NCBI GenBank assembly: GCA_963662465.1 | Contig: OY759599.1 | Span: 4,448,001 to 4,512,000, forward strand | Source of the DNA: Desulfatiglandales bacterium | Lineage (GTDB): Bacteria > Desulfobacterota > DSM-4660 > Desulfatiglandales > Desulfatiglandaceae | Direction: 5' to 3' | DNA: 64,000 nucleotides | Part shown: in pieces, positions 40,618 to 59,319 of the stretch | Position numbering within the stretch: the first letter of the stretch is position 1 | How the letters are laid out: the number at the start of each line of letters is the position of its first letter | Notes under the pieces: generated by a model | What the model was told of the DNA's origin: nothing | What the model saw: the letters and a program-made list of their open reading frames with translations, nothing else | Databases searched by the model: none | Translations under genes and position numbers: made by a program

Positions 40618-42051
40618 ATGGGAAGCACATGGATTGCTATTTTTCCGGAAATCATTCTGGCAACGGGAGGGCTTCTGATTTTCTGCACCGGCGCCTTCCT
40701 GCAACGTCGGCCCGGACCACTGCTTTTTTTCATGGCCCTGATCTTTTTGGGAAGCGCCATCGGGGCTTTTGCATCCCTTCCCATTTCCGGCATATGCCTG
40801 AACGGCATGCTGGATGGCGGCGGCTACGCCCGGCTTTTCAGTACACTGATTGCCGCCATCGCGTTCATATGTCTCCTTTTCTCTTCACGATACGCCGGTA
40901 ACCGGGGTTTTGAAAACGATGAATATTACGGCATTCTCCTTTTTGCCGTTCTCGGTATGGATCTGGCGGCCATAGCCGCCCACTGGCTCATCTTCTTTTT
41001 GGGCCTGGAACTTTTGTCCATTTCCCTCTATATCCTGATTACCATCCGCGGGGAGGATCCTTTTTTTCGAGAAGCGAGCCTCAAATACCTGATCACGGGC
41101 GCCGTGGCCGGTGCGTTCCTCGCCTTCGGCATCGGCCTCTGGTATGCGGGGACCGGATCGTTATCGGTGATCACCCATCTCGCATCCGGCGCCGAACGCG
41201 TAGACATCCCGCTTATGCCGGCGGCGCCGGCGTTTATCCTGGTGGGGATCGGCTTCAAAATCTCAATGGCCCCCTTTCATCTATGGACGTCGGATGTTTA
41301 TCAGGGCTCCCCCGCGCCGGTCACCGCATTTTTGGCCGCGGGATCAAAAGTGGCGATATTCGCTTTCCTCATCCGCTTTTGTTTTCACATGCAGGCCCCG
41401 CTCTGGGAGGCGTTTAAGCCGATCCTCTGGATAGGGGCCTTTCTGACCCTGATAGCGGGCACGCTGACCGCCATCAGTCAGTCCGACCTCAAACGCCTTC
41501 TGGCCTATTCCTCCGTGGCGCAGATGGGATATCTCCTCATGACGCTTCTGGCCGTGAAAATGGAAAGCGGACGCTTTGCCCTGGCCTTCTATCTGATGGT
41601 GTACGCGGCCATGGATCTGGGCGCCTTCGGGATCATCGCCTCGCTGTCCCACGAAAAAAAGGACCGCGACGCCCTTGAAGCGTATCAGGGTCTCGGTTAC
41701 ACTCACCCCTGGCGTTCCGCCATCCTCACCCTCTGCCTTCTTTCTCTGGCAGGGCTTCCCCCGACCGCGGGGTTCGTTGGGAAGGTAATCCTTTTTAAGG
41801 CGGTGCTTCAGGCGGGAGAACTGTCTCTTGCCGTCATTGCCATCGCCATGGCGGTGCTCTCCATATACCTGTATATGAAGGTGGTAATCACTCTTTACAT
41901 GCGACCTGGCGAGGCAGTCGGGCACGCCCCCGCAATGGGCTCTTATGAACGGATGGGCGGAGTTCTGATTCTCCTCTTTCTCCTGTGGGCGGGAATTGCT
42001 CCCTCGCCCTTGCTGACCCTTATTGCCAGCATTGTTCCTTCAGGAGGATAG
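40618..42051 (+). CDS. nuoN: NADH-quinone oxidoreductase subunit N
   Basis: GLELLS, EASLKY, FKISMAPFHLW, KRLLAYSS, LSLAGLPPTAGF. Confidence 0.92.
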   Translation: MGSTWIAIFPEIILATGGLLIFCTGAFLQRRPGPLLFFMALIFLGSAIGAFASLPISGICLNGMLDGGGYARLFSTLIAAIAFICLLFSSRYAGNRGFENDEYYGILLFAVLGMDLAAIAAHWLIFFLGLELLSISLYILITIRGEDPFFREASLKYLITGAVAGAFLAFGIGLWYAGTGSLSVITHLASGAERVDIPLMPAAPAFILVGIGFKISMAPFHLWTSDVYQGSPAPVTAFLAAGSKVAIFAFLIRFCFHMQAPLWEAFKPILWIGAFLTLIAGTLTAISQSDLKRLLAYSSVAQMGYLLMTLLAVKMESGRFALAFYLMVYAAMDLGAFGIIASLSHEKKDRDALEAYQGLGYTHPWRSAILTLCLLSLAGLPPTAGFVGKVILFKAVLQAGELSLAVIAIAMAVLSIYLYMKVVITLYMRPGEAVGHAPAMGSYERMGGVLILLFLLWAGIAPSPLLTLIASIVPSGG

Positions 42052-42052
42052 A
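42011..42052 (+). repeat. 42-bp direct repeat, left copy (nuoN 3' end; attL-like)
   Basis: tgctgacccttattgccagcattgttccttcaggaggataga; 41/42 identical to 59790-59831. Confidence 0.9.
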
Positions 42053-42134
42053 AGTTTCGCTGTCTAATCGACGATATCACACTATTTGCATTGGTTGGGA
42101 GTTATCCCTGCAAACACAGGTTTACCAAGACCAA

Positions 42135-42285
42135 TATACGTTGGAGGTATACCCAGCTGGTGTCATCCAAAAAACGGCCAGTTTAAGGCATCTCCCAACC
42201 CTCATTCCGCTCCCATGCCAACGATGATATCACAGGCATTCGGCTGCGAGAAATCGGTTGAGATATCCATTCCGACCGAACAGCA
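42135..42285. repeat. Conserved intergenic module, segment III
   Basis: atacgttggaggtatacccag...tgtcatccaaaaaacgg...gatgatatcacaggcattcggctg; homologous to 47053, 52596 and 55226. Confidence 0.85.
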
Positions 42286-42451
42286 TTCTGCAATCAACAA
42301 AACTGGCGGGGAGGTGGTGACCCTGACCTTTTAAGCCACCTGACGATTGTTTATATCGTTGGCAGGCCAATCCTGTCAGCAATTTTGACCTTTGACCTTT
42401 CTCGTCTCTCCCCATAATTTTTAGCCAATCCGTCTTGTCTTGGCCATAAAT

Positions 42452-45400
42452 TTACTTCACATTGATCATTTCGGATTTCAAAGACCCGCTCGATGCCTTA
42501 ATGGTCGTTGGACCGGGGGCATCAATAATGGTCATATTGGGCGCCTGATGATCATATTCGTTTGAATCGTACCCCCCTTTGATCAAAATTGATCTGCCGC
42601 CGCTCGCGCTTAAGGACTCCTCATAGGTTCCGCCTTTGACCTTAATGACCGATCCGGTCACGGCATCATCGATGGCATCCTGGATTTTGCGGTAGCAGGG
42701 TGTTTTAGTTCCGCAGTCGCCATTGCTGCTGACGTAGAAAGTGCCGGAGTAGGTTGGGTTTGTTTCAGCACCAAAAACGCCTGAAACATAGATCTGATAA
42801 AAATGGTAACCGTCTTCAACCGGTATGGTCACAACCTTTTCCGTCTCGCCGTTTTCGAGTACTACAGTCCCGGCATAGCGACTGACAATTTCAGTTCCTG
42901 TGTTGCTCTCTATATTCATGGTTATCGTTACAAACACAGCCCCTGAGCTGCCCTGAACTCGATTAACAGGAACCGACACGGAGCGGTTTCCGTTATTGAC
43001 CTGCTCGACAGGTGTCCCCAGATTGACCGTACCCGCTGGGCCCTCTTTAATCCACCGGTAGCCTTTGGACTGCACGCCTTCCTGGCTTTCAATCCCGTTG
43101 GTGTTCACCGATTTGACCATCCATCTGTACTCCCCGGCCTCCGAAATCCAGTCTTTATAAATAAAGGTGCCGGCATTAACCGTGTTTAGGAACTGAAAAC
43201 CTGAACCGGCGTCCCGGTATATCCTGAAGCCGGAAAGTGTGTTGCTCTGAGGGGGATCCCATCTAAGTTCAACTGAATTTCCATCCTGGTAACATGTCAG
43301 CCCCGTCGGTGGCGCCGGCTTTCCATCATACAGTGCCGGTCCCGCATATACCGGTGCGGCGCTGTCCCCCAGAATACTGTATGCCGCAAGGCGATACCAA
43401 TATTGTTTTCCAGCCGTTACCTTCTTATCCAGGTAACCGGATTGGCAAAGATACTGCCCATTAAGAAGATCTTCCCATAGACCGCCTGAGGCCTCGCTCC
43501 TCTCCAGCTTCCAGAAGACGGTGGCAGGCCAGCTATCATCAAACAAAACCCGAATACCCTGATATTCCGCCTGCAATTGCAGATTCGCAGGTGTGACAAG
43601 TGGCAAACCATACTCCCTGGTCGCCTCTACCATCTGAATCGAATTGGACCAATCGCTTATCTCTCCGCCGGTATATACCGACCTGACTCTGTACCAGTAT
43701 GGCGCAGTCGGCGTCTCACCCGTCCAGTCATCGAGCCATACCGGCTGGGGATACCGTTGTTGGCCAATCAGAACAAAAGGGCCGTTTTCCGATTCACTTC
43801 TTTCTAAATCATAACCCGCAATATCCGGATAATTCGAAGGGGACCAGCGTAAGACCGTTTTCTTTGCCGCGGAATAGGCCAAAGCCTCGATCCTGTCGGG
43901 AGGAGCGGCAAAGGCATCTTCTGCAACATTCAATGTGGCGGATATTTGGTGACGAACAGAACGATTCGCCTCCATTAAAAAACCTTCCAGAAGATTGCTG
44001 CCGGCATGAAAAGCAAGAGATTCCGGCACAGGCACCTCAACAGTGTTGTTCCCTATTTCCCCATGATTGGTGATGAGCGTACCATTCAGCCTGATTTCCA
44101 GATAGTCACGGTTGATGGGACAATCCGTAGTGTAGAGAGGAGAATCATAACTAAGCCAGAGATCCGGAGTTCGAGTATGAATCTCACTACCATCGGCCGG
44201 GCTCCAGCGTGCCGAGAGGCCCATCCAGAGATTATTAATGGTATACCCTTCGGTGCCGGGAGTGGAAATATAAGCGTCGCTTCGGGCCATGTCGCCCACG
44301 GTACTGCTTCCTTCTGGCAGGGTCGCTTGTGCGGTTCCGCCTGCATCCAGAGATACCATCCCCTTAACGGGGGTAACCAGTATCTTGTCATCGGGGAACA
44401 AATTGACAACGGTATACGATTCCTGATTTGACAGGGAAGAGGTATCGGCATCTGCTGAGCGCAAAAGAGCGTTCTGAGGTGCACGACTGTCCCCGACCTT
44501 TTTGAGTATATAATTCGTGCCATTTTCGGCAGCTTTGTTGAACACCCAATTCGCCACGCTGCCAGAACCGGGTGCAACCACGTTAGCGATCGCCTCACTC
44601 AGACCATCAATAAGTACAACTTTGCCATATCCTCTAGGGTCATTCTGAACATTGTAAGCCAGATTTTTTAGCTTAAAAAAGATTGAAGAACGCTCTAAAA
44701 CAATACCCCCTTCGATTTTGCCTAAAACGATTCTGGTGCCCCACTGTGAGTCTGGGACCCCCACTGACTGGCCATTGCAAAAACGAACGGACAAAGGTCC
44801 ACCAATGACTTCAAGCGCATCTCCCGGAAAGAGCTTCTCATTTACCTCCAACTCTCGAGGGTCTATAAACCCATTTACTCTAGACATCAGCTTCACCACG
44901 GGATTAACTCTGGTGGCCCGGGCGAATGGAAGACTGACGAATGTGCCGAGGTTTCCGGATTTATTACCATCTTTAGCGCTAATCTTTATCTCACCGTTGA
45001 TGTTTCCGTAGGTATCGGTATCCGACGTCAATAGGGCCGTCATATTGAAATGGGCGTTTTTAAAATTGGGACCCCAATCTGTAAAAGCAAAATAAAACGG
45101 CCCGGCATCATCTATGGTCGCCGAGAAATTAGATACGTCCTTATATTTAACGTTTAGGCCGTCATTTCCAAATCCATCGATTTCCTTGACACTAATGCTA
45201 AGTTGCTGATCTTTATCGTAAGAAGAGGGAACGGTACCGGCATAGACCATTAACTGCTCTCCCATGATCAAATGATCATCGAAAGTTGCACTTTTATTCG
45301 GATCTTGATTGGGATGCGAATAATCTGTATAATTTACTAAACCGTTTATATTAAGTTTAAAGGTATATTTGTGCACCCATGGTTTCGAAGGATCAGGCGC

Positions 45401-45862
45401 AACTGGGCAAAGCGAATTGACTCCGACCTCAACTGCATAACTATACTCAGAGAGCGCTTCCCACTCATTTTTAATATCGTCTCCTGTTGGATTCAAAGTG
45501 AAGCTTTCTATTCCCCCACTTCCCTCTGGACCCGTGAATTCAGCTGTAACGGTTATCGTTATCTGAGGTCCTTTATCCGGGTCCTGTCCAAGTTCTCCGG
45601 GCTCAAAGGTCATTATGTGGTTATAAATATGCGCGCCTCCATAATTAATATCCGAAGACCAGTAGTGACTGGTGTCGGGCGTGACCTCAACAGTCAGGCT
45701 AACGTATCTGCCTTCTCCGCCTTCTAGGGTGTAGGTCAGAGCGCAAACAGCCTCAGGACGGAATAAAAAACACCCCTGTACAATGAAAAGAAGAAGAATG
45801 GAAATTAAGAATAGCGAAAAGACTTTTTCTGTTTGAGCATCGATCAACGGGTATGGTTTCAT
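42452..45862 (-). CDS. Large secreted protein with fibronectin type III-like repeats, Calx-beta-like domain and conserved C-terminal domain
   Basis: Hydrophobic N-terminal signal; LRW...GY.LERS...YWYRVRS repeats; C-terminal YVSSNGDCGTKTPCYRKIQDAID. Confidence 0.8.
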   Translation of the reverse strand: MKPYPLIDAQTEKVFSLFLISILLLFIVQGCFLFRPEAVCALTYTLEGGEGRYVSLTVEVTPDTSHYWSSDINYGGAHIYNHIMTFEPGELGQDPDKGPQITITVTAEFTGPEGSGGIESFTLNPTGDDIKNEWEALSEYSYAVEVGVNSLCPVAPDPSKPWVHKYTFKLNINGLVNYTDYSHPNQDPNKSATFDDHLIMGEQLMVYAGTVPSSYDKDQQLSISVKEIDGFGNDGLNVKYKDVSNFSATIDDAGPFYFAFTDWGPNFKNAHFNMTALLTSDTDTYGNINGEIKISAKDGNKSGNLGTFVSLPFARATRVNPVVKLMSRVNGFIDPRELEVNEKLFPGDALEVIGGPLSVRFCNGQSVGVPDSQWGTRIVLGKIEGGIVLERSSIFFKLKNLAYNVQNDPRGYGKVVLIDGLSEAIANVVAPGSGSVANWVFNKAAENGTNYILKKVGDSRAPQNALLRSADADTSSLSNQESYTVVNLFPDDKILVTPVKGMVSLDAGGTAQATLPEGSSTVGDMARSDAYISTPGTEGYTINNLWMGLSARWSPADGSEIHTRTPDLWLSYDSPLYTTDCPINRDYLEIRLNGTLITNHGEIGNNTVEVPVPESLAFHAGSNLLEGFLMEANRSVRHQISATLNVAEDAFAAPPDRIEALAYSAAKKTVLRWSPSNYPDIAGYDLERSESENGPFVLIGQQRYPQPVWLDDWTGETPTAPYWYRVRSVYTGGEISDWSNSIQMVEATREYGLPLVTPANLQLQAEYQGIRVLFDDSWPATVFWKLERSEASGGLWEDLLNGQYLCQSGYLDKKVTAGKQYWYRLAAYSILGDSAAPVYAGPALYDGKPAPPTGLTCYQDGNSVELRWDPPQSNTLSGFRIYRDAGSGFQFLNTVNAGTFIYKDWISEAGEYRWMVKSVNTNGIESQEGVQSKGYRWIKEGPAGTVNLGTPVEQVNNGNRSVSVPVNRVQGSSGAVFVTITMNIESNTGTEIVSRYAGTVVLENGETEKVVTIPVEDGYHFYQIYVSGVFGAETNPTYSGTFYVSSNGDCGTKTPCYRKIQDAIDDAVTGSVIKVKGGTYEESLSASGGRSILIKGGYDSNEYDHQAPNMTIIDAPGPTTIKASSGSLKSEMINVK

Positions 45863-46752
45863 AATCCGATATATCCCCTCTGTTTGACTTTAGGCTACGC
45901 CTGTAAAAGTTATAATTACCTTGCCTCCTGAGGGGCAAACTTGAGTTGTCCGTATTGGCTTATTAATATTGTGGAGCTTCTGACCCTTGCGCCTCAGTTT
46001 CTTGGTATTTTACATATTTGCGTTTCATTTCTGTATCCAAACCAACAGCAACAACACACTATCTTCTAGCCCAATTAATTTCGGCAATAGGGTGCTACGC
46101 AAATTTTTCGTCCAGATGGTTGAAGCCGGCACATCTAGCAGGAAATTTTCAAGGAAAATTGGGCAATCCAGAGACTGCTGCCTCGAACACAAGCTGATCG
46201 GCTGAGTTAACGGCATTCTGACGAGGAATGGAATCACGAAACTTATTCAGGGGGGGACGAGTAAAGTTCTTTAGCTTTGGAAAGTTTGAGGTGAATGGAT
46301 TTGCAGATATACTGATGAAAGATATAAAACGATCAGTCGAAAAAACTTGGCAGGAATTTAACAACAAAAATATTTGATTGAAAGAATTATTGTCTTCGTG
46401 ATCAGGATAAGCAAAGCCAATAGTGACAATGGAAAATATGGGTATAAAAAAAAGTATTACCCGTTTATGACTAATATTCATTGTAAATTTCTATTTGAGA
46501 TGGATGAGACATAGGTTATCAGATTTTGGTTATAGATAATTATCTATTTCAGTCAAGGAGTTGTGTTGTATGTATTATGTTAATTAATCCAGGGTAACGC
46601 CTCGGCTGTGCCGGAGGTACAGTGAATTGATTTGCAAAAATTTTATCTTTCCGAAATCCAAACATTTGGGCATTTGGACACGCCCGGAACCTGCCGCATG
46701 CCTTACTTATCCTTAAGACCCAGCAGATCACAAAAGCATGGATGAAGTTCTT

Positions 46753-47150
46753 ATCACCCCTACATACAGAGGTCAATCAATTTGCCAACAAATCGTTTGC
46801 GGTCGGGGTTACGTGTATCATCTTTCACCGCAACGCCAAGAAAATCGTTCAAGGCTGACAGATCAATCTTACACTATTTCCCCATGAAATCAAACGAATG
46901 CTGCATATAGGAAGTCTTCACTTTTCGATTAACAGTCTGAAAAGGGCGCGACCACAATATGTAGTGGCATTGGGTAATAAGAGAAATGGCAAATTCAATC
47001 TTTACTCGGATGAGATATTGAACTCATATCACAACGTGGTCTTTGGTTGTGGTACGTTGGAGTAACCTGTAGGTCTTGCGTGATCCAAAACATGCATCTC
47101 TGGAACCTCAGTTTACCCCGTTCCCGATGATGATATCTCAAGTATCCGGC
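46753..47150. repeat. Conserved intergenic module, segments I+II+III (degenerate)
   Basis: ttacgtgtatca...gctgacagatcaatcttacac (I); ttcacttttcgattaacagtctgaaaagg...catatcacaac (II); tacgttggag...gatgatgatatc (III). Confidence 0.8.
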
Positions 47151-47184
47151 TTCCAAAAATTGGATCAAACGGATGTGCCAAGAA

Positions 47185-50100
47185 TTACTTCACGGTCAAC
47201 GTACTCCCATCCATCTTCCAGTATAACCCTGATGGGTCATAGGGATTGGAATAGAATTTCAGGGTGAATCCATATTGATTGCCATTGTACGAAACACAGT
47301 CCAAGGGGATACTCAGGTCTGTGCCAATTGGTATGCAATAAGTACCCGTTCCTGTCGTCAATGTTCCCATGACCAACTTCCAATAGTAGCCGGAGGGGTC
47401 ATCGGGATGGCGGTAGAAATCAAGCATAAAGCCGTATGGATTTCCATTATAATCGACACAATGAACATTGATGCCTAAACCAGCGCCAACTGCAAGACAA
47501 TCTGTATTTCCAGGTACAGTAACCGATGTTTGGTACGGTAGCGATAGAATCCCTTTGCGATCACGGGCAAAGACAGCTACGTTGTAAATCCCCTGAGTAG
47601 TAAATCCGTTATAAGTGCCACTGTAGCAGTCGTTTCCAACGGCAATCAAGTTGATCGTTGGCAGATCAGTTACGGGATTATCGGGAGACCCACTGGAATA
47701 GTTGGGGGCTTTGATGACTGCAAATACTTCCTGAATGCCATCCGCATCCACTACGTTTTTGGCTTGGATAAATGCGGATGTTTCACCTCCTAAAAGTGTT
47801 TGAGGCGCAGATACATCCTGAATGCTAGGAATATCACCTGCTGTTTTGGTTTCATTGCCAATCTTGATGATGTTAGCAATCTCTTGATCCGCCTTTTCGT
47901 TTCCCACGCCGTTAGCGTTGGCCTCAAGCAGTGGATTTTGTTTGTCGTTGTAGGTGGTCTTGACGCAGTTTTTGGCGATGACGAAGGAATCGTAGAAGGT
48001 GCTGCCGTTAAACAGCTGAGCGAAAAACTGGAAACCAAAGGATAAACTCCCGTCCACTTCAAAAATAGCGGGTTCATTTGGGGATGTGCTCGTGGCCAAG
48101 ATTCTCGTTTTTCCGGCGGGGGGAAGCAAATAGGAGACAAAGCTGCCGGAATGGCACCCATCGTAAAGGATGGTGATGAAATCAGTGATGCTTTGCTGTG
48201 CGGAATCCAGCCAGGAATCCAGAAGCGATGCCTCCAGCATTTCATATTCCCCCATACGAAATGTCCCTTCGCCCCCATGACCCACCATGTAAATAACCAG
48301 ACTGTCCGCATCAGACGCCCAGGTTTTAAGGGCGTACTCAAAATTAGCATTGGTTGCATCGCCATCAACGTCCGGGTAACCGTCGTTGTCCAGATCCACG
48401 TCCGTGTCGGAGGAGAGATAATATATGGTATCTCTTGTATAACCTTGGTATGAAAGTGCTCGGTAGGCATAGTTGGCACACATCTGAGTCGCATCCCAGA
48501 GGGTGTTGGTGGAGTATGGACCACTTCCGGCAACAATGATGGCTTTGTTGGTGGGGCCGGTAGTGAACGGTTTGAAAACCTTAACACGGTCGCAACCGGG
48601 ATCCGAAAAATTCAACTTGCCTTGCGAGTTTATAGCAAAATTATAGGACAGACCTAAATCTCCAGGCCCCTGACCTTCTGACCAGAGAAACTTTGAAATG
48701 AAGGTTCCATCAGATGAGAATACCTGCATACGTCTGAGGCTGAATTGGTCGTCCATGCCTATTAATTCAGGACAAAGCATATCCAAAACATAGATGCCCC
48801 CCGCGTTACCGATTGCAATATCCTTAACCTCTAGAAATTTCCCATCCCCAGCACCAAAGCTACCCCATTTGCTGATAAACTCCCCGGACGAAGTGAATTT
48901 TTGAATGCGAAAATTATTGGGATCTGTCACATAGACATTGTCTTCCGCGTCTAAAGCTATGGCGGCGCCGTGGACATCAAAGGCGAATTGACCGTCACCA
49001 GTTCCCGTACCTCCCCATTCGGTGACAAACTCTCCTGACGATGTAAACTTTATAATCCGTTCGTTCGAGCTAAATATATATACATTTCCAACGCTATCTG
49101 TTGCTATGGAACTTGCGTAAAAGGCGCCAATATCGGCCTGGTCCAACTTAAGAGACTCTCCTGACGATGTAAACTTTTGGATGCATCCGCTTGCCGCATA
49201 GACATTTCCAAAAACATCTATTGCTAGATCAAGAGGGTAATCGCCGCTAATGCTCCATTTAAGCAGGAACTTCCCTGAAGGCGTGAATTTTTGTACACGG
49301 CTATTTCCATATCCATAGTCAGCTACATAGACATTGTCAGCATTGTCTATTGCTATGCCAAGAGGATAATCAAATTGGCCATCTTCGATGCCTGCACTAG
49401 CCCACTTTGTCAAAAAATCACCTGTTGATGAGAACTTTTGGATTCGACTGTTCCCGAATTCAGCCACATAAACGTTTCCGGTATCATCTGTAGCCAAGCC
49501 CATGGCCCAATAAAATTCACCATCTCCGAAACCACCGCTCCCCCATTTGGTTATAAACTCTCCAGTGGATGTGAATTTTTGAATAAAGGACTCCTGAGAT
49601 ACATAAATGTTTCCCTCATTGTCTATTGCTATGCCCTTTACGTTATTGAGTTCGCCATCACCATAACCAAAGTTGCCCCATTTGGTAATAAATTCCCCGT
49701 TGGATGAAAATTTCTGTATTCGGGGGTTTATGGAATTGAGTGCAGATACATACCCATTATCAGCTACATACACATTGTTTTCATACATACCATTTGGTAA
49801 TAAATTCCCCGTTGGATGAAAATTTCATTCGGGGGTTTATGGAATTTGCAGATACATCATTATCAGCTACATACACATTGTTTTCAGCATCTACGGCAAT
49901 GCCCCACGGAGAACAGAATTCTCCGTCTCCGCTCCCTTCACTTCCCCATTTCGTGATAAAATCCCCTGAGGACGTAAATTTCTGGATGCGGTCGTTTCCG
50001 GCGTCGGCAACATACACGTTGCCCATATTATCTATAGCTATGGACTGAGGATAATCGAATTCCCCGTCACCGGTTCCATAACTGCCCCATTTGTTGATGA

Positions 50101-50374
50101 AAGTGCCCGATAGTGTAAATTTTTGGATACACTCATTATAAGTGTCCGCAACATAAACATTTCCAGAAGCATCTATCTCGACATCGCTGGGATTCTGAAA
50201 ATACCATGGCTGCTCCAGCACCGGCCACATCCGCTCAAATACGTATTCTTCCGCTGCTGAATTGCTAACAGAAATGATGCTTAGAAGCAGAAAACCCAAA
50301 AACAAGAAAACTGTGGATTGTCGATGATTGTTTCCGTATTTCATTCTTCCATCCGTGAAAGTAGATTTTCTCAA
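47185..50374 (-). pseudogene. Secreted NHL-repeat protein with clan CD (C13/caspase-like) peptidase domain; frameshift near 49785
   Basis: ORF 49781-50374 (signal peptide, NHL) plus ORF 47185-49788 (NHL, YMVGHG, YDGCHSGSF, two Cys-containing C-terminal repeats). Confidence 0.8.
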
Positions 50375-50835
50375 AATTACACCACCACATGGTGATTCGT
50401 CACAAAAAAATGAACCTAATTTTCGATTTCTGCATTATCATATACAAACCTTGAACAGGGTGAAGAGTCAACAATGCGAAGATTATGTGAGTCATTGATA
50501 TATCGACTTGCAATCACAAGCAAATCAGAACGGCAAGACCTTGTGAGCTGCCTTACACCCTTGGAAACAGCAGTTTCCTCGGACTAGAAAATATTTCAGC
50601 CGCCCCCTGCCTCACTTTCATGCCAAAAACCAAATATTATGGGAATCACAAAAGTTGAGATATCATAAAACTAGAACCCTGTGACTAACGCTGTAAGTTC
50701 TTCTGACACCTCAGGTTTGCCCGCAGTACAGGTTAATTGAGATAATCACCAGGATTCAACACCCTCAAAACCTTGTGATATCAATTACATATCTGTAAGT
50801 GTCCTCAGATTGCAGATTCTTAATCGAAAAATTTT

Positions 50836-50958
50836 ACCACCACAACATATGGGGGTCAACCCATTTTCCCACTATCCGGTCACAGAAAAAGGTTACGTGC
50901 ATCAATCCTCACCCCAACACCACCAAAATCGTGCAAGAATGCCAGATCAATCTTACAC
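50836..50958. repeat. Conserved intergenic module, segment I
   Basis: accacaacatatgggggtc...ttacgtgcatcaatcctcacccc...cagatcaatcttacac; homologous to 55091 and 46753. Confidence 0.85.
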
Positions 50959-51059
50959 CATCTGCTTCTGTAGGATAAAACATGATGCGGTAGATCGACA
51001 TTCCCCATGGGGTAAATCAAGTCGACCGCTGAAAATGTATGCAGTTTCCCTGCGAAATC

Positions 51060-51330
51060 CTAAACCGCCTCTTTCAGCTTCTTCCCTGCTTTAAATTTAA
51101 CGGCATTAGATGTCTTGATCTTGATCGGTTCTCCGGTACTCGGGTTTCGACCTTTCCGGGCTTTACTGTGGATTTTTGAGAATGTACCGAATCCAATCAC
51201 GGTTACTTTTCCATCCTTTTTCTTCAGCTCTTTCGTAATACTGTCGATAAATGAATTTAGCACCGCATTGGTAGCGGATTTGCTGATGTCTGCATCTTTA
51301 GCCATTTGCCCGACCAGTTCAGCTTTACCA
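51060..51330 (-). CDS. hup: HU family DNA-binding protein (start codon uncertain or lost)
   Basis: KAELV, GFGTF, ARKGRNPSTGEPIKI, KFKAGKKLKEAV. Confidence 0.85.
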
Positions 51331-51417
51331 ATATGTAATATGTAGTAATCTTGACCGCCAACAACCTGACTCAAATTGAATATTTAACTCAGAAGTTGTA
51401 ACTTTAACCAATAGGAT

Positions 51418-52305
51418 ATGTTGAGGTCAATTCATTTTTTATTAACCCTCAAAAAACGGGAGGTGCACTATGGAACTGTTGGAGGCCACGAATTTTTTTT
51501 TGATTATCAGAGAATGAATTCCAAAAAAAGCACATTGAAAAACTATGAGTTCGTTCTAACCAGATTCGAACACCATTTCGGCAACATTGAGTTGTCATCC
51601 GTAACCACAAAAAATGTCCTTTTTTTTCTCACAAAGATATCCAAAGAGACGAAGCAGTCAACTAAAAAACTCCGTTACTCCCTCCTGTCGACCTTTTTCA
51701 ATTTTATCAAGACCTCTTTCGACCCCAAAATTCAAAATCCTTGTGATTCCCCTACACTGAAGAACCTTTTCAAAGTCCAGAAACCGATCCATTGGAAGAT
51801 TTTGGAAAAAGACGTTGTGGATGAAATCATCTTCAGAACGGAAGACATCAGAAACCGTCTCATGCTCGAACTTATGGGACGTGGTGGCATGAGAGTAGGA
51901 GAAGTTCTGAAACTCACACCTGCTGACGTTGAAGACAGGAAGATATTCATCCGCGATCCCAAAAGCGGAAAAGAAATGGAGGTCGTTTTCATCCCCAAAA
52001 AAGTAGCTGACAGACTCAAGGAGTACATCCGAGAGAAAAGAATTCAGTCTGGTGAAAGAATTTTCCCTATAAGCTACTCCGCTGCGAGGATTGTTGTGAT
52101 GAAAGCCGGTAAGTTGGTTGGTGTCAGATTGAGGCCGCATGATCTGAGAAGGCATGCCGCAACTTTTGCCTCCCGGGCTGGAACTCCTTTGGAGATTGTC
52201 AGCAAGATCATCCTCCGCCATTCCAACCTGTCGACCACTCAAAGATATTTGGGAAAAGTCAGTGATATGGAGACCATGAGATGGATTGACAATATTCATG
52301 GATAA
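51418..52305 (+). CDS. Tyrosine recombinase/integrase (XerD-like)
   Basis: Catalytic residues GMRVGE, HDLRRH, LRHSN, TQRYL; the best RBS-ATG (51470) is out of frame across a T9 run. Confidence 0.9.
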   Translation: MLRSIHFLLTLKKREVHYGTVGGHEFFFDYQRMNSKKSTLKNYEFVLTRFEHHFGNIELSSVTTKNVLFFLTKISKETKQSTKKLRYSLLSTFFNFIKTSFDPKIQNPCDSPTLKNLFKVQKPIHWKILEKDVVDEIIFRTEDIRNRLMLELMGRGGMRVGEVLKLTPADVEDRKIFIRDPKSGKEMEVVFIPKKVADRLKEYIREKRIQSGERIFPISYSAARIVVMKAGKLVGVRLRPHDLRRHAATFASRAGTPLEIVSKIILRHSNLSTTQRYLGKVSDMETMRWIDNIHG

Positions 52306-52452
52306 AAGAGAAAAAGCCGGGTTGAGAGGCAAAACACCTCAGCCCGGAACCGTGAAGATTTGATCTGCCATCCTTTTCCATGCTGCACCAAAAAAAAGGG
52401 TCCCAGCCAGGTGCTTTCCCAGACCTCCGAGCTCCAGATCTGACAGCATATT

Positions 52453-52730
52453 CATATAGGTATTGTTCACTTTTGGATTAACAGCCTGAAAAGGACTCGA
52501 CCAGATGTAGTGGCATTGGATAATGAGAGAAATGGGAAATGCAATCTTGCTCGGATGTGATATGTGGTTCATATCACAACCCGGTAGTTGCCTGATATAC
52601 GTTGGAGATATACCCGGTCTTATGTCATCCAAAAAACTGTCAATTTCATGCGTCTCTCGACACTCCGAACAACCCCTCCCAATGATGATATCACAACCAT
52701 TCGACTGCGAGACATCTATGGTTGATATCA
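52453..52730. repeat. Conserved intergenic module, segments II+III
   Basis: catatagg..ttcacttttggattaacagcctgaaaagg...catatcacaac; atacgttggagatataccc...aatgatgatatcacaaccattcgactgcgaga. Confidence 0.85.
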
Positions 52731-54788
52731 TCTAACCACCAACGTGTTCATATCCATCTTCCAGTAGTACCCCGATGGGTCATAGGGGTTGGGGTAAAAC
52801 TGAAGCGTAAACCCATATTGTGTGCCGTTGTATGAAACACAATCCATGGGCATACTGAGGTCCGTTCCAATGGGTAAACAATATGAGCCTGTTCCAGTAG
52901 TCAAGGTGGGCATGACCAGTTTCCAATAAAAGCCAGAAAGATCGTCCGGATTGCGATAAAAATCGAAAACAAAGCCATACGAATTGCCGCTATATTCGGC
53001 ACAAGGGACATTGATACCTAAACTGGCACTGACAGATAGGCAATCCGTATCTACAGGCACGGTAACAGAAGTCTGATACGGTAAAGACAGGATTCCTTCT
53101 CCGTCACGGGCAAAAACCGTCACACTGTAGACCCCTTGAGAGGTAAACCCGTCATATGTGCCGCTGTAGCTGTTGTTTCCGACTGAAGTCAAAGTGATGG
53201 TAGGCAGATCGGTTACGGGGTTATCGGAAGAACCGCTGGAATAGTCCGGCGGTTTGATAACGGCAAAGACCTCTTGGATGCCATCTGCGTCAACAACATT
53301 CTGTGCATGGATAAATGCGGATGTGTCCCCTGCTGAAAGCGCCTGCGGTGCGGATACAGTCTGAATGCTGGGAATATCGGTCGCTGTTTTGGTCTCATTG
53401 CCGATCTTGATTGCATTTGCAATCTCTTGATCCGCCTTTTCATTTCCCACTCCGTTGCCGTTGGCCTCAAGCTGCGGATTTTGCTTATCCTCATAGGTGG
53501 CTTTGACGCAGTTCTTGGCGTCAACGAAAGATTTGTAGAAACTGGTGCCGTAAAACAGTTTGGAAAAAAACTGATACCCAAAAGATAGCTGGCCGTCCAC
53601 TTCAAAAATGGCGGGTTCATTGGGGGAGGTGCTCACCGCTACAATTCTCGTTTTGCCGGTCGGTGCAAGCAGATAAGACACAAAGCTTCCTGAACGACAA
53701 CCATCGTAAACCAGGGTCACGAATTCAGGAACACTTTCCTGCACAACATCCAGCCACGTGTCAAGCGCTGACGCTTCCAGAAGTTCGAATTCCCCCATCC
53801 GAAATGTGCCCTCACCTCCGTGGCCTACCATATAAATGAACAGACTGTCCGCATCGGCAGCCCAGGTTTTGATGGCGTACGCGAGATTGTCGTTGGTGGC
53901 ATCGCCATCCACGTCCGGGTATCCATCGTTGTTCAGATCCAGGTCGGTGCTGGCGGAAAGGTAGTAGATGTATTCTCCCGTGTACCCCTGGTAAGTCAGA
54001 GCACGGTGGGCATAGTTGGCGCACATTTGGGTTGCGTCCCAAAGTGTATTGGTGGCATATGGACCACTTCCGGCGATGATGATTGCCTTATTATTGAAGA
54101 CACTTGCATTCTCTTTCAAAACCTGTATGCGGTTATTGCCATTGTCAACAATGTATATTTTGCCATTGCCACTCACAGCAAGTCCAAATGGATTGTTCAC
54201 CAGCCCCGGATCGGATCCGAGTGCACACAATTCCGTTATAAACTGACCGGTGGAACTGAACTTCTGAATTCGGTCGTTACCATTGTCCGCCACATAGACG
54301 TTCCCTTCCGGGTCGATGGCAATTCCTCTAGGACTGTTAAACTGCCCATCGGCTGCGCCTTCACTTCCCCATTTAAGGATAAACTCACCCGAGGAACTGA
54401 ACTTCTGGATACGATCGTTATCAGTATCCGCCACATAGACGTTCCCTTCCGAGTCGATGGCGATTCCTTCAGGACTGTTAAACTGCCCATCGGCTGCGCC
54501 TTCACTTCCCCATTTAAGGATAAACTCACCCGAGGGACTGAACTTCTGAATTCGGTCGTTACCAGTATCCTCAACATAGAGGTTCCCTTCCGGGTCGATG
54601 GCAAAATCTAAAGGGCTACTAAAATACCACGGTTGATCCAGCACAGGCCACATGCGCTCAAAAACATATTTTTCCTCTGCTAACGATTTGGCAGGGAAAA
54701 TGGTCAAAAACACAAAACTCAATATCAAGGGAACAAAGATTTGACGCAAGTTAGACCGTTTCAATTCTTTCTCCTTTTCAGAATTCAT
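52728..54788 (-). CDS. Secreted NHL-repeat protein with clan CD (C13/caspase-like) peptidase domain, paralog 2
   Basis: Signal peptide, NHL repeats, YMVGHG, YDGCRSGSF, two C-terminal Cys repeats; C-terminal half closely similar to paralog 1. Confidence 0.85.
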   Translation of the reverse strand: MNSEKEKELKRSNLRQIFVPLILSFVFLTIFPAKSLAEEKYVFERMWPVLDQPWYFSSPLDFAIDPEGNLYVEDTGNDRIQKFSPSGEFILKWGSEGAADGQFNSPEGIAIDSEGNVYVADTDNDRIQKFSSSGEFILKWGSEGAADGQFNSPRGIAIDPEGNVYVADNGNDRIQKFSSTGQFITELCALGSDPGLVNNPFGLAVSGNGKIYIVDNGNNRIQVLKENASVFNNKAIIIAGSGPYATNTLWDATQMCANYAHRALTYQGYTGEYIYYLSASTDLDLNNDGYPDVDGDATNDNLAYAIKTWAADADSLFIYMVGHGGEGTFRMGEFELLEASALDTWLDVVQESVPEFVTLVYDGCRSGSFVSYLLAPTGKTRIVAVSTSPNEPAIFEVDGQLSFGYQFFSKLFYGTSFYKSFVDAKNCVKATYEDKQNPQLEANGNGVGNEKADQEIANAIKIGNETKTATDIPSIQTVSAPQALSAGDTSAFIHAQNVVDADGIQEVFAVIKPPDYSSGSSDNPVTDLPTITLTSVGNNSYSGTYDGFTSQGVYSVTVFARDGEGILSLPYQTSVTVPVDTDCLSVSASLGINVPCAEYSGNSYGFVFDFYRNPDDLSGFYWKLVMPTLTTGTGSYCLPIGTDLSMPMDCVSYNGTQYGFTLQFYPNPYDPSGYYWKMDMNTLVVR
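54240..54605. repeat. Near-identical 141-bp tandem repeats encoding NHL units
   Basis: aactgcccatcggctgcgccttcacttccccatttaaggataaactcacccgag recurs at 54340 and 54481. Confidence 0.9.
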
Positions 54789-55090
54789 TTACCAATCAAT
54801 ACACCGCACAGTATCTTTTCGTCACATTTGGAACAATCTCAATGTAAAACCCCTGCCGCTCTCTAACTCAAACTACCTGAACATAAGGATGTATCATCAG
54901 CCCAAAAAAACTGTGATATCATCAAATCCGAGGTCTTGAGTAAACGTTGAGATTGATCCCATCTCTCAGGGCCGGTCATGGTTGATATATATTGAGGTAT
55001 TCCCAAAAAATAGGCCCCCTCAAAATCTTGTGCTATGCTTCACATGTTCCTTCCTGCGCTTCAAACTCTGAAACCACTCTGGGAATTCTG

Positions 55091-55375
55091 ACAACCACAA
55101 CATATTGGGGTCCACCAATTTCCCGGCTATCCGCACCCAGAACAAGAGTACGTGCATCAATCTTCACCCCGACATCATCAAAATTGTGCGAGGCTGACAG
55201 AACAATCATTGAAGTCGAGCATGAGATATGTTGGAGGTATACCCAGTTAGTGTCACCCAAAAAACGGCAACTTTCATGCATCTACCAACCCTCACTCCGC
55301 CCCCTTCTCAATGATGATATCACAGGCATTCGGCTGGGAGGAATCGTTTGTGATATTATTCCGGTCGGAACCGTG
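55091..55375. repeat. Conserved intergenic module, segments I+III
   Basis: accacaacatattggggtc...tacgtgcatcaatcttcacccc...gctgacag, then gttggaggtatacccag...gatgatatcacaggcattcggctg. Confidence 0.85.
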
Positions 55376-55686
55376 GAATTGGCCTCATGAGATGTTTACA
55401 GCAGTTTGAATCATAATTTTGAGATTGGCTCATATCTGTAACTTTAAATCATTCCATATAGCTAAGTGATACCAACAATTTGCGCCTATCGCGGACGGGG
55501 AAATGTGGTCCTATTAGGGTTTACCTTTGCAACGGCTGTGGTGAAAAAGCGCCGTGCCGAATAGGGGTCCTCTGCTACAACCGGAAATATCGCAACCGCG
55601 GCGGCTCCATGACTCGGCAGCAGATAAGCGCTTACTTGAATCTGTCGGGTTCTCAAGACGCTGCCGTCAAACGATGATACAGCCCG

Positions 55687-57585
55687 TCAAGGTGTGATCC
55701 GCATTTCCGTAAGTGTCAAAGAGGAGCCCTCCTCCACACTGGGAGCCTGATTAAATACCGTTTTGCCGTCCTGATCCGCAAAGGTCCGACCCCAGTTTCC
55801 GCTGAAGGTCAGCTGCTTTGATCCTTTAACGCTTACGGTTTCCGAGTAGTTTCCTCCGGCAATGAATAGGGTGGACCCAGTAGAAGCCGCATCAACGGCC
55901 GCCTGAATGGTGGTGTAGCAGGGCAACTTGCCACCGCACTTTTTTTCGGTGTCGCTGCTGACGTAAAGGTGGTGCTGCGTCTGGCCCCCGCCGCCGCCCA
56001 AGTACCAGTCGAGCGTGGCGTTGTCGCCGAAGTCGTTGGGGCCCAGCGGGGCCGGGTTAACGCCGAGTATGGGAGGATCTCCCTTGGTTCCATAAAACCC
56101 CCACAGGTCCGTAGAGGGGTATAAATAGGCCGGTGCAACCTCCATCATGCGCATCAGTTCCAAATAGTAAGGATCCACCAAGTCATCGGCCGTTCGGCGA
56201 TCATCCTGGAGGTTGATCATGTCCTGACCTTTTAGAGCTCCGGTAAGTCCACCCGTTACCTGCCCCCCTTTGACCAGAATATAGAAATCATATGTGTCTT
56301 CACCGACAATATACGGCACATAACCGGACCACGCCGGGAGCTGCTTGTCATTCACGTATTCGTCCTTGTAGATAACCCCTGTAATGACGGCGTTGCCTAT
56401 GGCATAAAAAAGATTGGTACCCATCACATTGGTGAGCCATGTCGGCGCGGTCACAACATTGTTCACGCTGCTGGTCCAGATACATTCGAGCAGCCCCTGG
56501 TCTTCCGTCATTTCGTAGCCTTTCCCGCTGGCATTTGTCACGGCATTCCATATCTGTTCGCCCTGGCCTGACGCGTTATTTTTGTAAAGTGTAAAGTCCG
56601 TCAGCTTCATGGTGTATTTTCCAGAGACAGGATCCTTTTCAAAGGTAACGTATGTGGTCCAATGGTTTGAATCATGGTTCGTTCCCGTCTCGGGATCATT
56701 CTGGGGGGTGTTTCTGCCCACACGGAAACCCGCGGTAGTCCAGTTGGGTCCGGTACCCGGACTCCCGGGCTGCCATATATGGTTACATGCCTTGGTGGTG
56801 GCGATAATCTTATCTAGGGCACGGGTAAAACTGCCGATGCCCTTTGCCCAGCCATTGCCACTAGCTTGATGCAGCGTCCTCCACCCGATGGGATCGGTCG
56901 CACCCGGAAACGTGAGTTTCTTGGAAACGCCTCCTTCACCGGTGCTCAGCCAGGCAAACTGAGGTTGAGAGCAATAGGCTGCAATCACAGCACTCAAAGC
57001 GGCAGTGGATTTGCCCTGCGCTGCCCCAAAAACCCCTTTGGCGGATTTTTCAGGAAGGTTTGAAAACTCCATACGGGTGAGGAAATCCACCCGATCGATC
57101 CAACTCATGTCAAACGTCTGGCCTGCCGTGCCAAAAAAAGCCCACTCAAAATAGTTATATGGCATTGTCGTGGTCTCGTCAGACGGTTGCGTGGCCGGTG
57201 GCTCCGTATCGCTCAATATGGCGTAAAACCGCGTACCATTATTGGGGCGCATGATGCGTACCTTGCCCTGGTCGATTTTACTGAACTGTACAACGGCATA
57301 TGCACCTGGAACTGAAACTTGGTTTAAGGTTTTCCATACGCCGGATTCCTGATACTTCAACTCATAATCGGTCAACAGCCAGATTTGGTCATCTGTCGGA
57401 GTGGCGCCGTAAAACTCGCCCGGTCCAAAGTTGTTGTGCACGGTCATCTCGTAATAGGTGGTCGCACCGAATGCGCGGGGCGCCTGTGCCAGTGTCAACA
57501 TCAGCAATGCAGACAGGCAGGACAGAAAAATGGAAACCTTTCGTTGAAAAGCCGAATAAGACACAAAATCAAAGTACCATTTCAT
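55687..57585 (-). CDS. Secreted protein of unknown function with conserved C-terminal domain
   Basis: Signal peptide; GAGGAGG RBS; C-terminal YVSSDTEKKCGGKLPCYTTIQAAVD similar to that of 42452-45862. Confidence 0.8.
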   Translation of the reverse strand: MKWYFDFVSYSAFQRKVSIFLSCLSALLMLTLAQAPRAFGATTYYEMTVHNNFGPGEFYGATPTDDQIWLLTDYELKYQESGVWKTLNQVSVPGAYAVVQFSKIDQGKVRIMRPNNGTRFYAILSDTEPPATQPSDETTTMPYNYFEWAFFGTAGQTFDMSWIDRVDFLTRMEFSNLPEKSAKGVFGAAQGKSTAALSAVIAAYCSQPQFAWLSTGEGGVSKKLTFPGATDPIGWRTLHQASGNGWAKGIGSFTRALDKIIATTKACNHIWQPGSPGTGPNWTTAGFRVGRNTPQNDPETGTNHDSNHWTTYVTFEKDPVSGKYTMKLTDFTLYKNNASGQGEQIWNAVTNASGKGYEMTEDQGLLECIWTSSVNNVVTAPTWLTNVMGTNLFYAIGNAVITGVIYKDEYVNDKQLPAWSGYVPYIVGEDTYDFYILVKGGQVTGGLTGALKGQDMINLQDDRRTADDLVDPYYLELMRMMEVAPAYLYPSTDLWGFYGTKGDPPILGVNPAPLGPNDFGDNATLDWYLGGGGGQTQHHLYVSSDTEKKCGGKLPCYTTIQAAVDAASTGSTLFIAGGNYSETVSVKGSKQLTFSGNWGRTFADQDGKTVFNQAPSVEEGSSLTLTEMRITP

Positions 57586-57798
57586 CTTCCCCTCCTCAAT
57601 TGCTTAATAGAAAATTCTATATCATAAATTTTCTGTTGACACAAAATAAAACTCACACGCTGGTGTAAACCACGGCCAGTAAAAACACCTTGTATCGCGC
57701 ATAGTTATATATAACTACCCCTGACTACCTTTGGCACTTGCATGAAGCCAAAAAAGGCAAACCAAAAAAAGCTGTGATAAGTTTGGAGAGGTAAGATA

Positions 57799-58740
57799 AT
57801 GCATGATCAAAATTTCAAAAATCTGATTCTGGACTATCCCGTTCAAGCACTGGAGTTTTTTGCCGGGGAAGAAGCGGGATCAGATTTATCCGAAGCCAGA
57901 ATACTCCCCGTACGACAAGAACAACTGAAGGAGCGGTTGGGGGATCGTTTCCGTGAGTTGGATACGCCGCTTTTGGTGGAATGGTCGGATGGCCGAAGGG
58001 AAGCCATTTTGTTTGTGGTCGAAGAAGAAACCAAAACCAGCGAGTTTTCAATATATCGTTTAGCCCGCTATTGTTTGGATTTGGCGGAATTGATGGAAAC
58101 GGACCGTGTGGTTCCCGTTGTGATTTTTTTGAGAACGGGAGACCATCGGACCTATCTGAGACTGGGCAGCAATTCATGCGCCTATTTGGAATTTCGATAT
58201 CTGATGTGCGAACTCAAAGGCTTGTCATCAGCCCGATATTATGACAGCGACAATATTGTTGCGCGGTTGAATCTTCCCAATATGGCCTATCCTCCAGAGG
58301 ATCGTCTTGAGATGTATCCGGCGGCGCAAACCGGCTTGGCCCGGCTTGAGACGAGCCCGGAAAAGCAACAAAAATATGCAGACTTCATCGACTTTTATGC
58401 CGATTTGAGCGAAGAGGAAGTCACCCTCTATCGCGATCGCTATCTAAGCGAGAAAGGAGACATTATGGGACTGGCAAGTGTACTAAGAAAAGAGGGACGA
58501 GATGAAGGCATTGAGCAGGGCATGCAGCAGGGAACTATGAAACTTCTGTCCCGTCTAATTGCGAAGCGTTTTCAGGTCAGCGCTGATTCTGTTCATCCGA
58601 TTTTTGCCGGCTTGACAACAGAGCAGCTTGAAGAATTGGGAGAGAGATTTTTCGAGGCTGAGAGTTTGGAAGAGATTCGAAATTGGGCGGAGGAGAAACT
58701 GTCGGCAAAAGCTCAAAGGACCGAGGCATCTGTGGGATGA
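57799..58740 (+). CDS. Rpn/YhgA-like (PD-(D/E)XK-type) protein with DUF4351-like C-terminus
   Basis: HDQNFKNLI, ELDTPLLV, EGRDEGIEQGMQQG repeat, EQLEELGE. Confidence 0.7.
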   Translation: MHDQNFKNLILDYPVQALEFFAGEEAGSDLSEARILPVRQEQLKERLGDRFRELDTPLLVEWSDGRREAILFVVEEETKTSEFSIYRLARYCLDLAELMETDRVVPVVIFLRTGDHRTYLRLGSNSCAYLEFRYLMCELKGLSSARYYDSDNIVARLNLPNMAYPPEDRLEMYPAAQTGLARLETSPEKQQKYADFIDFYADLSEEEVTLYRDRYLSEKGDIMGLASVLRKEGRDEGIEQGMQQGTMKLLSRLIAKRFQVSADSVHPIFAGLTTEQLEELGERFFEAESLEEIRNWAEEKLSAKAQRTEASVG

Positions 58741-59053
58741 CCATGAAATTCTAAAAAAGTCTCTTGCCTCGGTTATACAAGAGAAACGGGGACAGGCACA
58801 TCATGATTCTCAAACCTAATCAATGCCTGTGAGTTGGATGAAAACAGATTTATAAAATTACAAAAAGGTCTCGTGCAAAAAGGCGTAGAGTTGGAGGGGA
58901 CAGGGGTCGAAGGAAGGAAGAGTAGATTTCGCGGTAGGCGACCATCAGCTTCCAGTTGCTTGCCTACCTTTGGATTGGAACACAGAACCGGGGTGGATGG
59001 GAAAGATGGAGTTCAACTGGCAGAGCCTCTGACAACTGACCTCTGGCTGTTTA

Positions 59054-59310: not shown

Positions 59311-59319
59311 CGGCAAAAT

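Follow-up and report, generated by a model that had tools for sequence, protein, structure and literature searches.

A candidate system of secreted-protein gene cassettes with a nested XerA-like recombinase in a Desulfatiglandales bacterium

Why do several large genes for secreted proteins in one bacterial chromosome each end close to a copy of the same non-coding module, and why does a tyrosine recombinase gene lie in their midst? The question is raised by positions 42,052 to 57,585 of a stretch of 64,000 nucleotides (the window; G000:C1:4448001-4512000, G000 being the genome that holds it and other G numbers related genomes) from a Desulfatiglandales bacterium. A first-pass annotation had suggested that the module is a recombination site used to stack or swap surface-protein cassettes. 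This stands in so far as the modules contain core-like sites and cassettes recur in different settings, but not with regard to a single kind of site: instead of one repeated attachment site, we see at least two classes of spacer and two types of unit that alternate. The system described here is probably a recombinase-driven cassette system, neither an integron nor a known dif-module system, and we consider it on balance probable that the XerA-like recombinase acts on matching spacers at the joints of the alternating units, so that cassettes of secreted-protein genes are excised, stacked and exchanged. No description of this array system was found in the literature, subscription papers and supplements being outside the scope of the search.

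G000 is a complete genome of 8.16 Mb with 49.5% G+C. Contigs of run X1, possibly the source sample, tile positions 41000-59131 at approximately 27-43x, with gaps at repeats, and differ from the window by at most one letter per listed piece; the region is, therefore, no assembly artefact. Comparisons covered 36 genomes of the same family and 24 others, most of these assemblies being fragmented, the recombinase was surveyed in 300 genomes across the phylum, and the read-level search was made in the assembled contigs of four out of 12 runs.

Modules, core sites and cargo

The four module copies previously noted in the window were recovered by nhmmer, with matches at 42135-42265 (segment C), 42272-42417 (D), 46623-47164 (A-B-C), 52354-52721 (B-C) and 54990-55355 (A-C), and the modules end 35, 21, 7 and 332 bp from the stop codons at 42452, 47185, 52728 and 55687, respectively. 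Identity among the four C segments (120 bp) is 55-86%, whereas shuffles reach at most 48-52%, and each segment begins with the 7-mer GTTGGAG (42140, 47056, 52601 and 55230). Where the annotation saw three segments in fixed order there are five, E-A-B-C-D, further blocks at 50515-50961 and 54846-55209 having been missed, and what it took for a single local array belongs to a genome-wide family. Profiles built from the window gave 129 segment matches in G000 (A 49, B 23, C 27, D 11, E 19), in 30 clusters that sit at approximately 30 places round the chromosome. The order E<A<B<C<D holds in 36 of 38 adjacent segment pairs, and 28 of the 30 clusters are single-stranded, strands being mixed in the other two; in the window all 12 segment matches lie on the same strand and the sites lie outside coding sequence.

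The absence of a conserved reading frame was confirmed: most internal indels in the alignments of A, B, C and E have a length that is no multiple of three, and overlapping open reading frames (ORFs) of 130 and 132 amino acids (aa) have no Pfam match. On these two grounds a decayed protein gene was rejected, and a known RNA was set aside as no Rfam family fits the segments. Segment D folds better than shuffles on the cargo strand (z about -2 to -2.6); among 16 closely related sequences 2 of 28 pairs are compensatory, with a covariation term of +0.29. The folds of B and C are inconsistent (z -0.4 to -2.5). The D segment of G004 is also 92-94% identical to that of other genomes in the genus, the core genes of G004 being approximately 75-80% identical to those of G000, a similarity that suggests either recent spread or strong constraint.

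Within module DNA the pattern ATA[TC]-N7-[AG]TAT occurs 42 times in 33,861 bp, i.e., 1.24 per kb versus 0.066 per kb genome-wide, although these matches come from related copies and so are not 42 independent events. Other spacer lengths give 3-14 matches, and only N=7 is enriched in module DNA. Four site classes recur: S1, with spacer ATTGAG(A/T), at the start of A; S2, inside A; S3, at the end of B; and S4, with spacer GTTGGAG, at the start of C, 37 bp after S3. The exact S4 core is present 21 times in G000 versus once for a backward control, and 33 versus 11 times in 60 relatives. Its spacer occupies 13 of 28 context-defined C ends, shifted variants occurring at several more. The sites are now resolved to the single-base level.

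These sites delimit two kinds of unit. A cargo unit consists of C (or C-D), a gene pointing back at C, and E; it alternates with a carrier unit, A...B, which has the sub-terminal cores S2 and S3 and in some cases holds the recombinase, most carrier units being empty or shortened. The spacer at the C-side junction is mostly GTTGGAG (S4), that at the E-side junction ATTGAG(A/T) (S1). Both C and the reverse complement of E start with a ATATACCC-type arm and have TGATGATATCAC some 70-80 bp inside, and beyond this motif they align with a score of 35.2 versus 29.1 for shuffles (24 x 16 pairs). Consequently, the cargo unit has imperfect inverted ends.

The earlier statement that the module lies at the 3' ends of variable secreted-protein genes holds genome-wide. 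Cargo was defined as the next ORF that reaches 180 aa and lies no more than 900 bp from B, C or D. In 32 of 33 such ORFs the 3' end faces the module (p 8e-9), and 21 of the 33 have a signal-peptide-like start by a crude filter, compared to 888 of 4699 (19%) in the whole genome (p 2e-8). Pfam analysis of 18 selected cargo proteins from G000 and relatives gave domains unrelated to NHL, e.g., peptidase S74 chaperone, PKD, M23, beta-helix, laminin G, C39, IPTL-CTERM and pentapeptide repeats; four proteins have no Pfam match and two (YdjC, CNNM) are not of typical secreted families. The cargo genes span many families of C-terminal domain. The four window genes do not have three unrelated architectures, as had been thought, since gene 2 is a paralogue of gene 3 and a C-terminal domain is common to genes 1 and 4 (37% over 78 aa, E 3e-11); in the Atlas this domain falls in unnamed clusters with a weak DUF1565 lead. 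Nevertheless, the view that gene duplication is not the whole story proved right. A module at the 3' end is found in only 4 of 23 members of one large secreted family and in 5 of 19 of the other; the module is, therefore, not the tail of one duplicated gene, and simple duplication of a gene family together with its 3' flank was rejected as a full account because most members are without it. The secreted proteins of G000 fall into conserved C-terminal-domain families of 23, 19, 7 and 4 members; the family that was tested has no Pfam name, and these domains may possibly be sorting signals. At locus L050 (G005:C181) paralogous lipoprotein-like genes are separated by A segments, beside a recombinase.

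Segment A furthermore holds a promoter-like sequence on the cargo strand, TTGACC-17-TA(A/G)(A/G)AT with an extended -10; in the window it is TTGACC-17-TAAAAT (50831..50859, minus strand) and faces cargo gene 2. The strict pattern is present in eight G000 copies, seven of which are followed by a same-strand ORF 236-646 bp away. Since a generic promoter scan of the region gave no excess (26 versus 24.4), the support for a sigma-70-like promoter consists of conservation only. A 16-bp palindrome lies between the hexamers and also in B (at 50839, 55094, 46951 and in many A/B copies), and 13 of its 15 exact genome matches are inside modules. The NrdR operator comprises two 16-bp boxes 15-16 bp apart (PMC13584703), and the module palindromes fit the six conserved NrdR-box positions. 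However, they are always single, with no partner box (5/6 or better, 31-32 bp away) beside any of them, and NrdR control was rejected even though the host has nrdR and a box pair at its ribonucleotide reductase gene (G000:4875276/4875308).

Exchange between modules and the nested recombinase

The comparison of 155 module regions from G000 and related genomes points to exchange at the core sites. At S4 and S1 near-identical left flanks pair with unrelated right flanks and vice versa: swaps make up 57 of 69 informative pairs at S4 (34/23) and 50 of 59 at S1 (27/23), in both directions. The swap fraction is 0.54-0.67 at S3 and at the motifs CATATAG and GTGCAT, while S2 yielded too few pairs; at 13 control anchors it is 0.01-0.59 and mostly one-sided. 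In the cluster at 2379.5-2383.8 kb a C-gene-E unit is inverted between B and A, joined via a hybrid core with arms from A and C.

Four cargo units are common to G000 and related genomes in different settings, which bears out the expectation that cassette context varies across genomes. A 2.6-kb cassette with a 720-aa gene, found at L037 (G010) and at G000:6578018-6580627, ends exactly at the S4 spacer, and a 1.5-kb cassette with a gene of 405/421 aa, 99.2% identical between L040 and G000:2844912-2846428, ends at an A/B junction. The homology of L043 ends at the left arm of S3, the unit with a 501/524-aa gene begins at a GTGCAT motif, and that with a 533/557-aa gene (L005) begins approximately 25 bp inside C; the other ends of the shared units lie near gene starts, not at sites. 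Many core proteins of G010 are 92-99% identical to those of G000. A module search with a single query gave 25 matches in G010, five in G005, four in G004 and none in G022 and G013; G004 and G005 have arrays of the same build with other secreted genes. In G004 and G010 nuoN is followed by other genes, those operons being only 70-74% identical. The cassette of cluster 29 (G000:C1:7888164-7892921) lies between two copies of a small-gene region of approximately 260 bp that is single in G010. Overall, modules are present in 8 of the 36 genomes of the family and in none of the 24 others, and the recombinase in 11 of 36, 0 of 24 and 21 of 300 across the phylum.

The recombinase belongs to PF00589 and has the catalytic residues R-K-H-R-H/W-Y of the tyrosine recombinase superfamily. 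Its best NCBIfam model is archaeal XerA (NF040815, 123 bits versus a cut-off of 220); TIGR02224 gives 60 versus 335 and TIGR02225 57 versus 330. The integron integrase models score far below their cut-offs (TIGR02249, 43 versus 265 bits; NF011946, 25 versus 435), in agreement with the first-pass annotation that it does not look like IntI. The protein is approximately 280 aa long, is without an arm-binding domain and has PDB 4a8e as its best solved relative; judged from its sequence, it is not a XerA/XerC/XerD dimer resolvase. Its homologues comprise 4036 matches, mostly on short contigs, its relatives come from Thermodesulfobacteriota, and the recombinase was not found in the plasmid collection or viral contigs searched. 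G000 has three near-full copies (96-97% identical to that of the window), a 3' half and a fragment. The dN/dS of 0.09-0.12 among the three full copies argues for purifying selection. The gene lies between A and B, with segment B after the stop in all four longer G000 copies, and S4-like cores occur 55-95 bp after its relatives in G004 and G024. In most relatives (L008-L120) a GC-rich hairpin, with no clear U tract, comes right after the stop codon.

The 295-aa recombinase ORF of the window does not begin at the homologous start of the gene. A ribosome-binding site at 51459 and an ATG at 51470 give MELLEATNFF, which is homologous to the beginning of in-frame relatives but is shifted by one base from the frame, and a -1 slip at a run of nine T (T9, 51493-51501) would connect it to the catalytic frame; we infer slippage at this run. 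Of 37 loci examined, five were uninformative; among the remaining 32 the start is in frame in seven and out of frame in 25: a +1 shift is required in 20 (16 of these having an A run of at least 7), and five are of the T-run type. The latter form one clade (support 100/98).

The HU-like gene beside the recombinase had been regarded as an accessory factor, an idea that was rejected: the frame is without ATG and ribosome-binding site in all three (5'-truncated) G000 copies, and HU lies within 1.6 kb of the recombinase in only 4 of 32 loci. Its dN/dS of 0.24-0.38 stems from few changes and is uninformative. An intact HU relative adjoins segment E in G004, and on its sequence HU is best read as captured passenger cargo. 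In one copy (G000:C1:3848256-3848765) a 169-aa ORF, which we take to be an IS200-like transposase, is inserted between HU and the ribosome-binding site of the recombinase.

Layout of the window

The order of features in the window is nuoN, C-D, gene 1, A-B-C, gene 2, E-A, HU, recombinase, B-C, gene 3, E-A-C, gene 4 and an E remnant, with four GTTGGAG sites in the same direction; sites and segments are on the plus strand and the cargo genes on the minus strand. The first S4 site (42132..42154; arm, spacer 42140-42146, arm) is the left end of the array, with host sequence after nuoN to its left. Segment C of cargo unit 1 (42135..42265) forms its inner end and has the TGATGATATCAC half-site; segment D (42272..42417), of a type approximately 115-145 bp long, ends GGGGAGG/CCTCCCC. 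Cargo gene 1 (42452..45862) encodes 1136 aa with a signal-peptide-like start, an fn3 domain and the C-terminal domain common with gene 4. Upstream of it, where segment E is missing, lies a 110-aa minus-strand ORF (46149-46481) with a hydrophobic start and no Pfam match. The carrier unit that comes next (46623..47039) is without recombinase, a degenerate A being joined to B at CATATAG (46904), and has an S3 spacer at 47019-47025.

The second S4 site (spacer 47056-47062, degenerate right arm) and its segment C (47048..47164) precede cargo gene 2 (47185..50374), which encodes NHL repeats and a peptidase C13-like domain. All four cargo genes have signal-peptide-like starts, in line with the annotation, but gene 2 is not one intact gene: it is split into ORFs of 197 and 867 aa by an extra 103 bp (approximately 49755-49857) built of duplicated pieces. 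A contig of run X3 is without the 103 bp and has no other letter differences over 367 bp, its upstream part being a different sequence. Segment E (50515..50694), an imperfect inverted repeat of C, is the other inner end of cargo unit 2. It is followed by site S1 (spacer ATTGAGA, 50736-50742) and segment A with S2 (spacer 50782-50788), together at 50728..50961, by the HU-like passenger (51060..51332, minus strand), which is probably decaying, and by the recombinase (51459..52305, plus strand), whose R-K-H-R-H-Y motifs are intact.

Segment B (52354..52582), with a CATATAG junction at 52453, contains a perfect S3 site, TGTGATAT - GTGGTTC (52564-52570) - ATATCACA. The third S4 site (spacer 52601-52607) and its segment C (52592..52721) end 7 bp from the stop of cargo gene 3 (52728..54788; 686 aa, signal-peptide-like start, NHL repeats and a peptidase C13-like domain), the paralogue of gene 2. 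Then come segment E, site S1 (spacer 54991-54997) and a short A-only carrier unit (54846..55209), the fourth S4 site (spacer 55230-55236) with segment C (55222..55355), and cargo gene 4 (55687..57585; 632 aa, signal-peptide-like start, no Pfam match, C-terminal domain in common with gene 1). The array closes with a remnant of E (57758..57780), truncated by a multi-copy DUF4351-tailed gene (57799-58740), presumably Rpn-like, which has a 257-bp partial duplicate at 59054-59324.

Outside the array, the nuoL-like gene (38327-39064) stops at 238 aa versus 624 aa in the G010 homologue, and the nuo-like operon, therefore, looks partly deleted. Two unrelated direct-repeat pairs, 93-96% identical, lie at 16854-16922/63325-63393 and 27155-27381/33027-33254.

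Proposed mechanism, rival explanations and known systems

In the mechanism that we propose the nested recombinase would cut these sites and matching spacers would pair. Recombination of S4 with S4, or of S1 with S1, would remove or insert a cargo-plus-carrier pair, one exchange at each spacer class would swap a single cargo unit, and rare mismatched events would invert a cargo unit, as may have happened at 2379.5-2383.8 kb. The promoter-like sequence in A would transcribe the adjacent cargo, like Pc of integrons, and the -1 slip at T9 would keep recombinase levels low. The elements that are new here are the two spacer classes, the alternating units, the inverted C/E ends, the genome-wide secreted-cargo bias, the promoter pattern of A, the clade with T-run recoding and the passenger status of HU. 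A bolder version, which we regard as rather doubtful, holds that one recoded XerA-like enzyme with two mutually incompatible spacers swaps whole secreted-protein genes among some 30 promoter-supplying chromosomal docks, an integron-independent remodelling of the surface and secreted proteome in anaerobic sediment bacteria.

Several observations weigh against recombinase-driven exchange at these sites. The swap statistic uses related, non-independent pairs and analyst-chosen anchors, and the sites lie at segment borders. Exchange is also seen at CATATAG and GTGCAT, which have no good arms. Strict core sites hold 111 of 775 sharp breakpoints (shifted null 58.5 +/- 7.1, maximum 82 in 1000 shifts), 86% falling outside; other routes or looser sites, therefore, also shape the mosaic. 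The module-to-module junctions or circles that cassette movement had led the annotation to expect did not appear: the contigs of the four runs contain no clean excision or inversion junction and no circle, and the joints seen in them have extra letters and match other module copies. A search for empty sites of seven G000 clusters in relatives gave three with both flanks syntenic in G010, none with a clean junction, those intervals having other content and no modules between the flanks; likewise, no clean empty site emerged from six G010 arrays compared with G000. The tie to this integrase family that had been foreseen is strong locally, with B after each longer recombinase copy, and partial within the family: the recombinase has a match (E <= 1e-30) in three of the eight genomes with modules, eight recombinase-positive genomes have no module match, and the S4 core is associated with recombinase presence at p=0.07. 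Near distant recombinase relatives (within 500 bp) the N7 motif shows no enrichment, with 6 matches downstream of 39 versus 9 for N5, and G000 has other tyrosine-recombinase genes (66 first-look candidates).

These points leave room for other explanations. The segments could be the ends of tyrosine-recombinase transposons, a small family with non-autonomous derivatives, which pile up on each other's ends by cut-and-paste with coupling sequences, the mode of Tn916-like elements, with no ordered cassette exchange. Such elements would fit C and E as imperfect inverted repeats with cores at their outer ends, the approximately 30 unrelated chromosomal places with unique outer flanks, the shortened A, A-B and B-only copies that look like miniature elements, an inversion that joins unlike spacers, and a recombinase family that is large and mostly on short contigs. 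However, the spacers are conserved by position: GTTGGAG holds its 13 of 28 C ends also next to unique host DNA, although coupling sequences would be expected to vary there. Unit order and strand are near-fixed, and neither target duplications nor empty targets were found at the syntenic G000/G010 clusters compared. We therefore deem this explanation unlikely.

It is quite improbable, in our opinion, that the modules are dispersed regulatory repeats of secreted-protein genes (promoter, operator or 3' structure) in which homologous recombination or gene conversion made the mosaic and the palindromes are protein-binding sites, not crossover points. Most sharp breakpoints do lie outside strict cores, A has a conserved promoter pattern and palindrome, D folds better than shuffles, and the C-terminal domains common to some cargo families could seed recombination. 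Yet only some 7-15 bp are shared between unrelated flanks at S4 and S1, where swaps go both ways and exceed those at longer conserved control motifs, the recombinase is nested inside the module, and D has few compensatory pairs. That another host enzyme (XerC/D, an integron integrase or a RIT trio) acts on the sites, the nested recombinase being cargo like HU, seems very improbable. All G000 recombinase copies need the slip, some genomes with modules either gave no recombinase (G002, G003, G009 and G016, which are 66, 89, 93 and 93% complete) or have an interrupted one, and host Xer enzymes work the dif modules of Acinetobacter, according to the accessible part of PMC13141974. On the other hand, repeats and multi-copy genes are often missing in fragmented assemblies, the recombinase is under purifying selection, with S4-like cores after its relatives, there are no attC box pairs, and the spacer here is 7 bp, not the 6 bp between 11-bp arms of dif (PMC2958812 and PMC8371274, accessible parts).

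Exchange of cassettes by the nested XerA-like enzyme thus remains the explanation that we favour. The system uses neither IntI/attC nor, by site geometry, XerCD/dif, and its cargo genes are 1-3.5 kb in size and encode secreted proteins. If the nested enzyme acts, it would account for fast turnover of secreted proteins in Thermodesulfobacteriota, would offer genome engineering a 280-aa recombinase with natural orthogonal 7-bp spacers, and would be a case of recombinase output limited by homopolymer slippage, in which an A run (+1) changed to a T run (-1) in one clade.

Two bacterial gene-cassette systems are well studied, integrons and dif modules. Shufflons and phase-variable inversion loci combine several sites per locus with one tyrosine recombinase and surface-protein variation, shufflons swapping gene ends at inverted sites within a single locus. 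Unlike in these, nearly every site here is in direct orientation, genes move whole from locus to locus and inversions are rare (2 of 30 clusters of mixed strand). In Cre/lox cassette exchange with heterospecific spacers it is spacer identity that sets partner choice. Unlike in Tn916-type elements, no conjugation or excisionase genes were seen. The arrays resemble integrons and attC-site clusters without an integron integrase (CALINs), as far as described in the accessible part of PMC4889954, in having single-gene units that run in the same direction, each with a site at its 3' end, a tyrosine recombinase, enzyme-less arrays elsewhere in the genome and a putative promoter-like platform sequence facing the cargo. 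They differ in having sites that resemble double-stranded cores, in the framing of genes on both sides, and in an enzyme that is nested and repeated. In accordance with the earlier statement that the module does not resemble attC, no R-box pairs occur on either strand of 42001-58000, a scan made without a covariance model of attC. With archaeal XerA/dif (accessible parts of PMC2958812 and PMC8371274) they have in common a single enzyme of approximately 280 aa and an inverted repeat, although here the enzyme is multi-copy and patchy and acts, if our reading holds, on many 7-bp-spacer sites instead of one 11-6-11 dif site; bacterial dif patterns had no match in a scan of G000, which is uninformative.

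The closest working analogue seems to be the dif modules of Acinetobacter, even though their site definition does not apply here. In the accessible part of PMC13141974 two types of module alternate, full sites exist only at junctions, and exchange is guided by identical or near-identical spacers; inversions, loss of adjacent pairs and single-module replacement via two sites are described, as are modules that are gene-less. The asymmetric sites consist of XerC and XerD arms round a 6-bp spacer and reside mainly on Rep_3 plasmids (PMC13141974). The comparative evidence likewise indicates alternating unit types and exchange at matching spacers in our system. However, its arms are near-symmetric, its spacers are 7 bp, its ends span 150-500 bp with extra half-sites and a promoter-like sequence, and it is chromosomal, with approximately 30 loci, one self-encoded recombinase and mostly large secreted-protein cargo.

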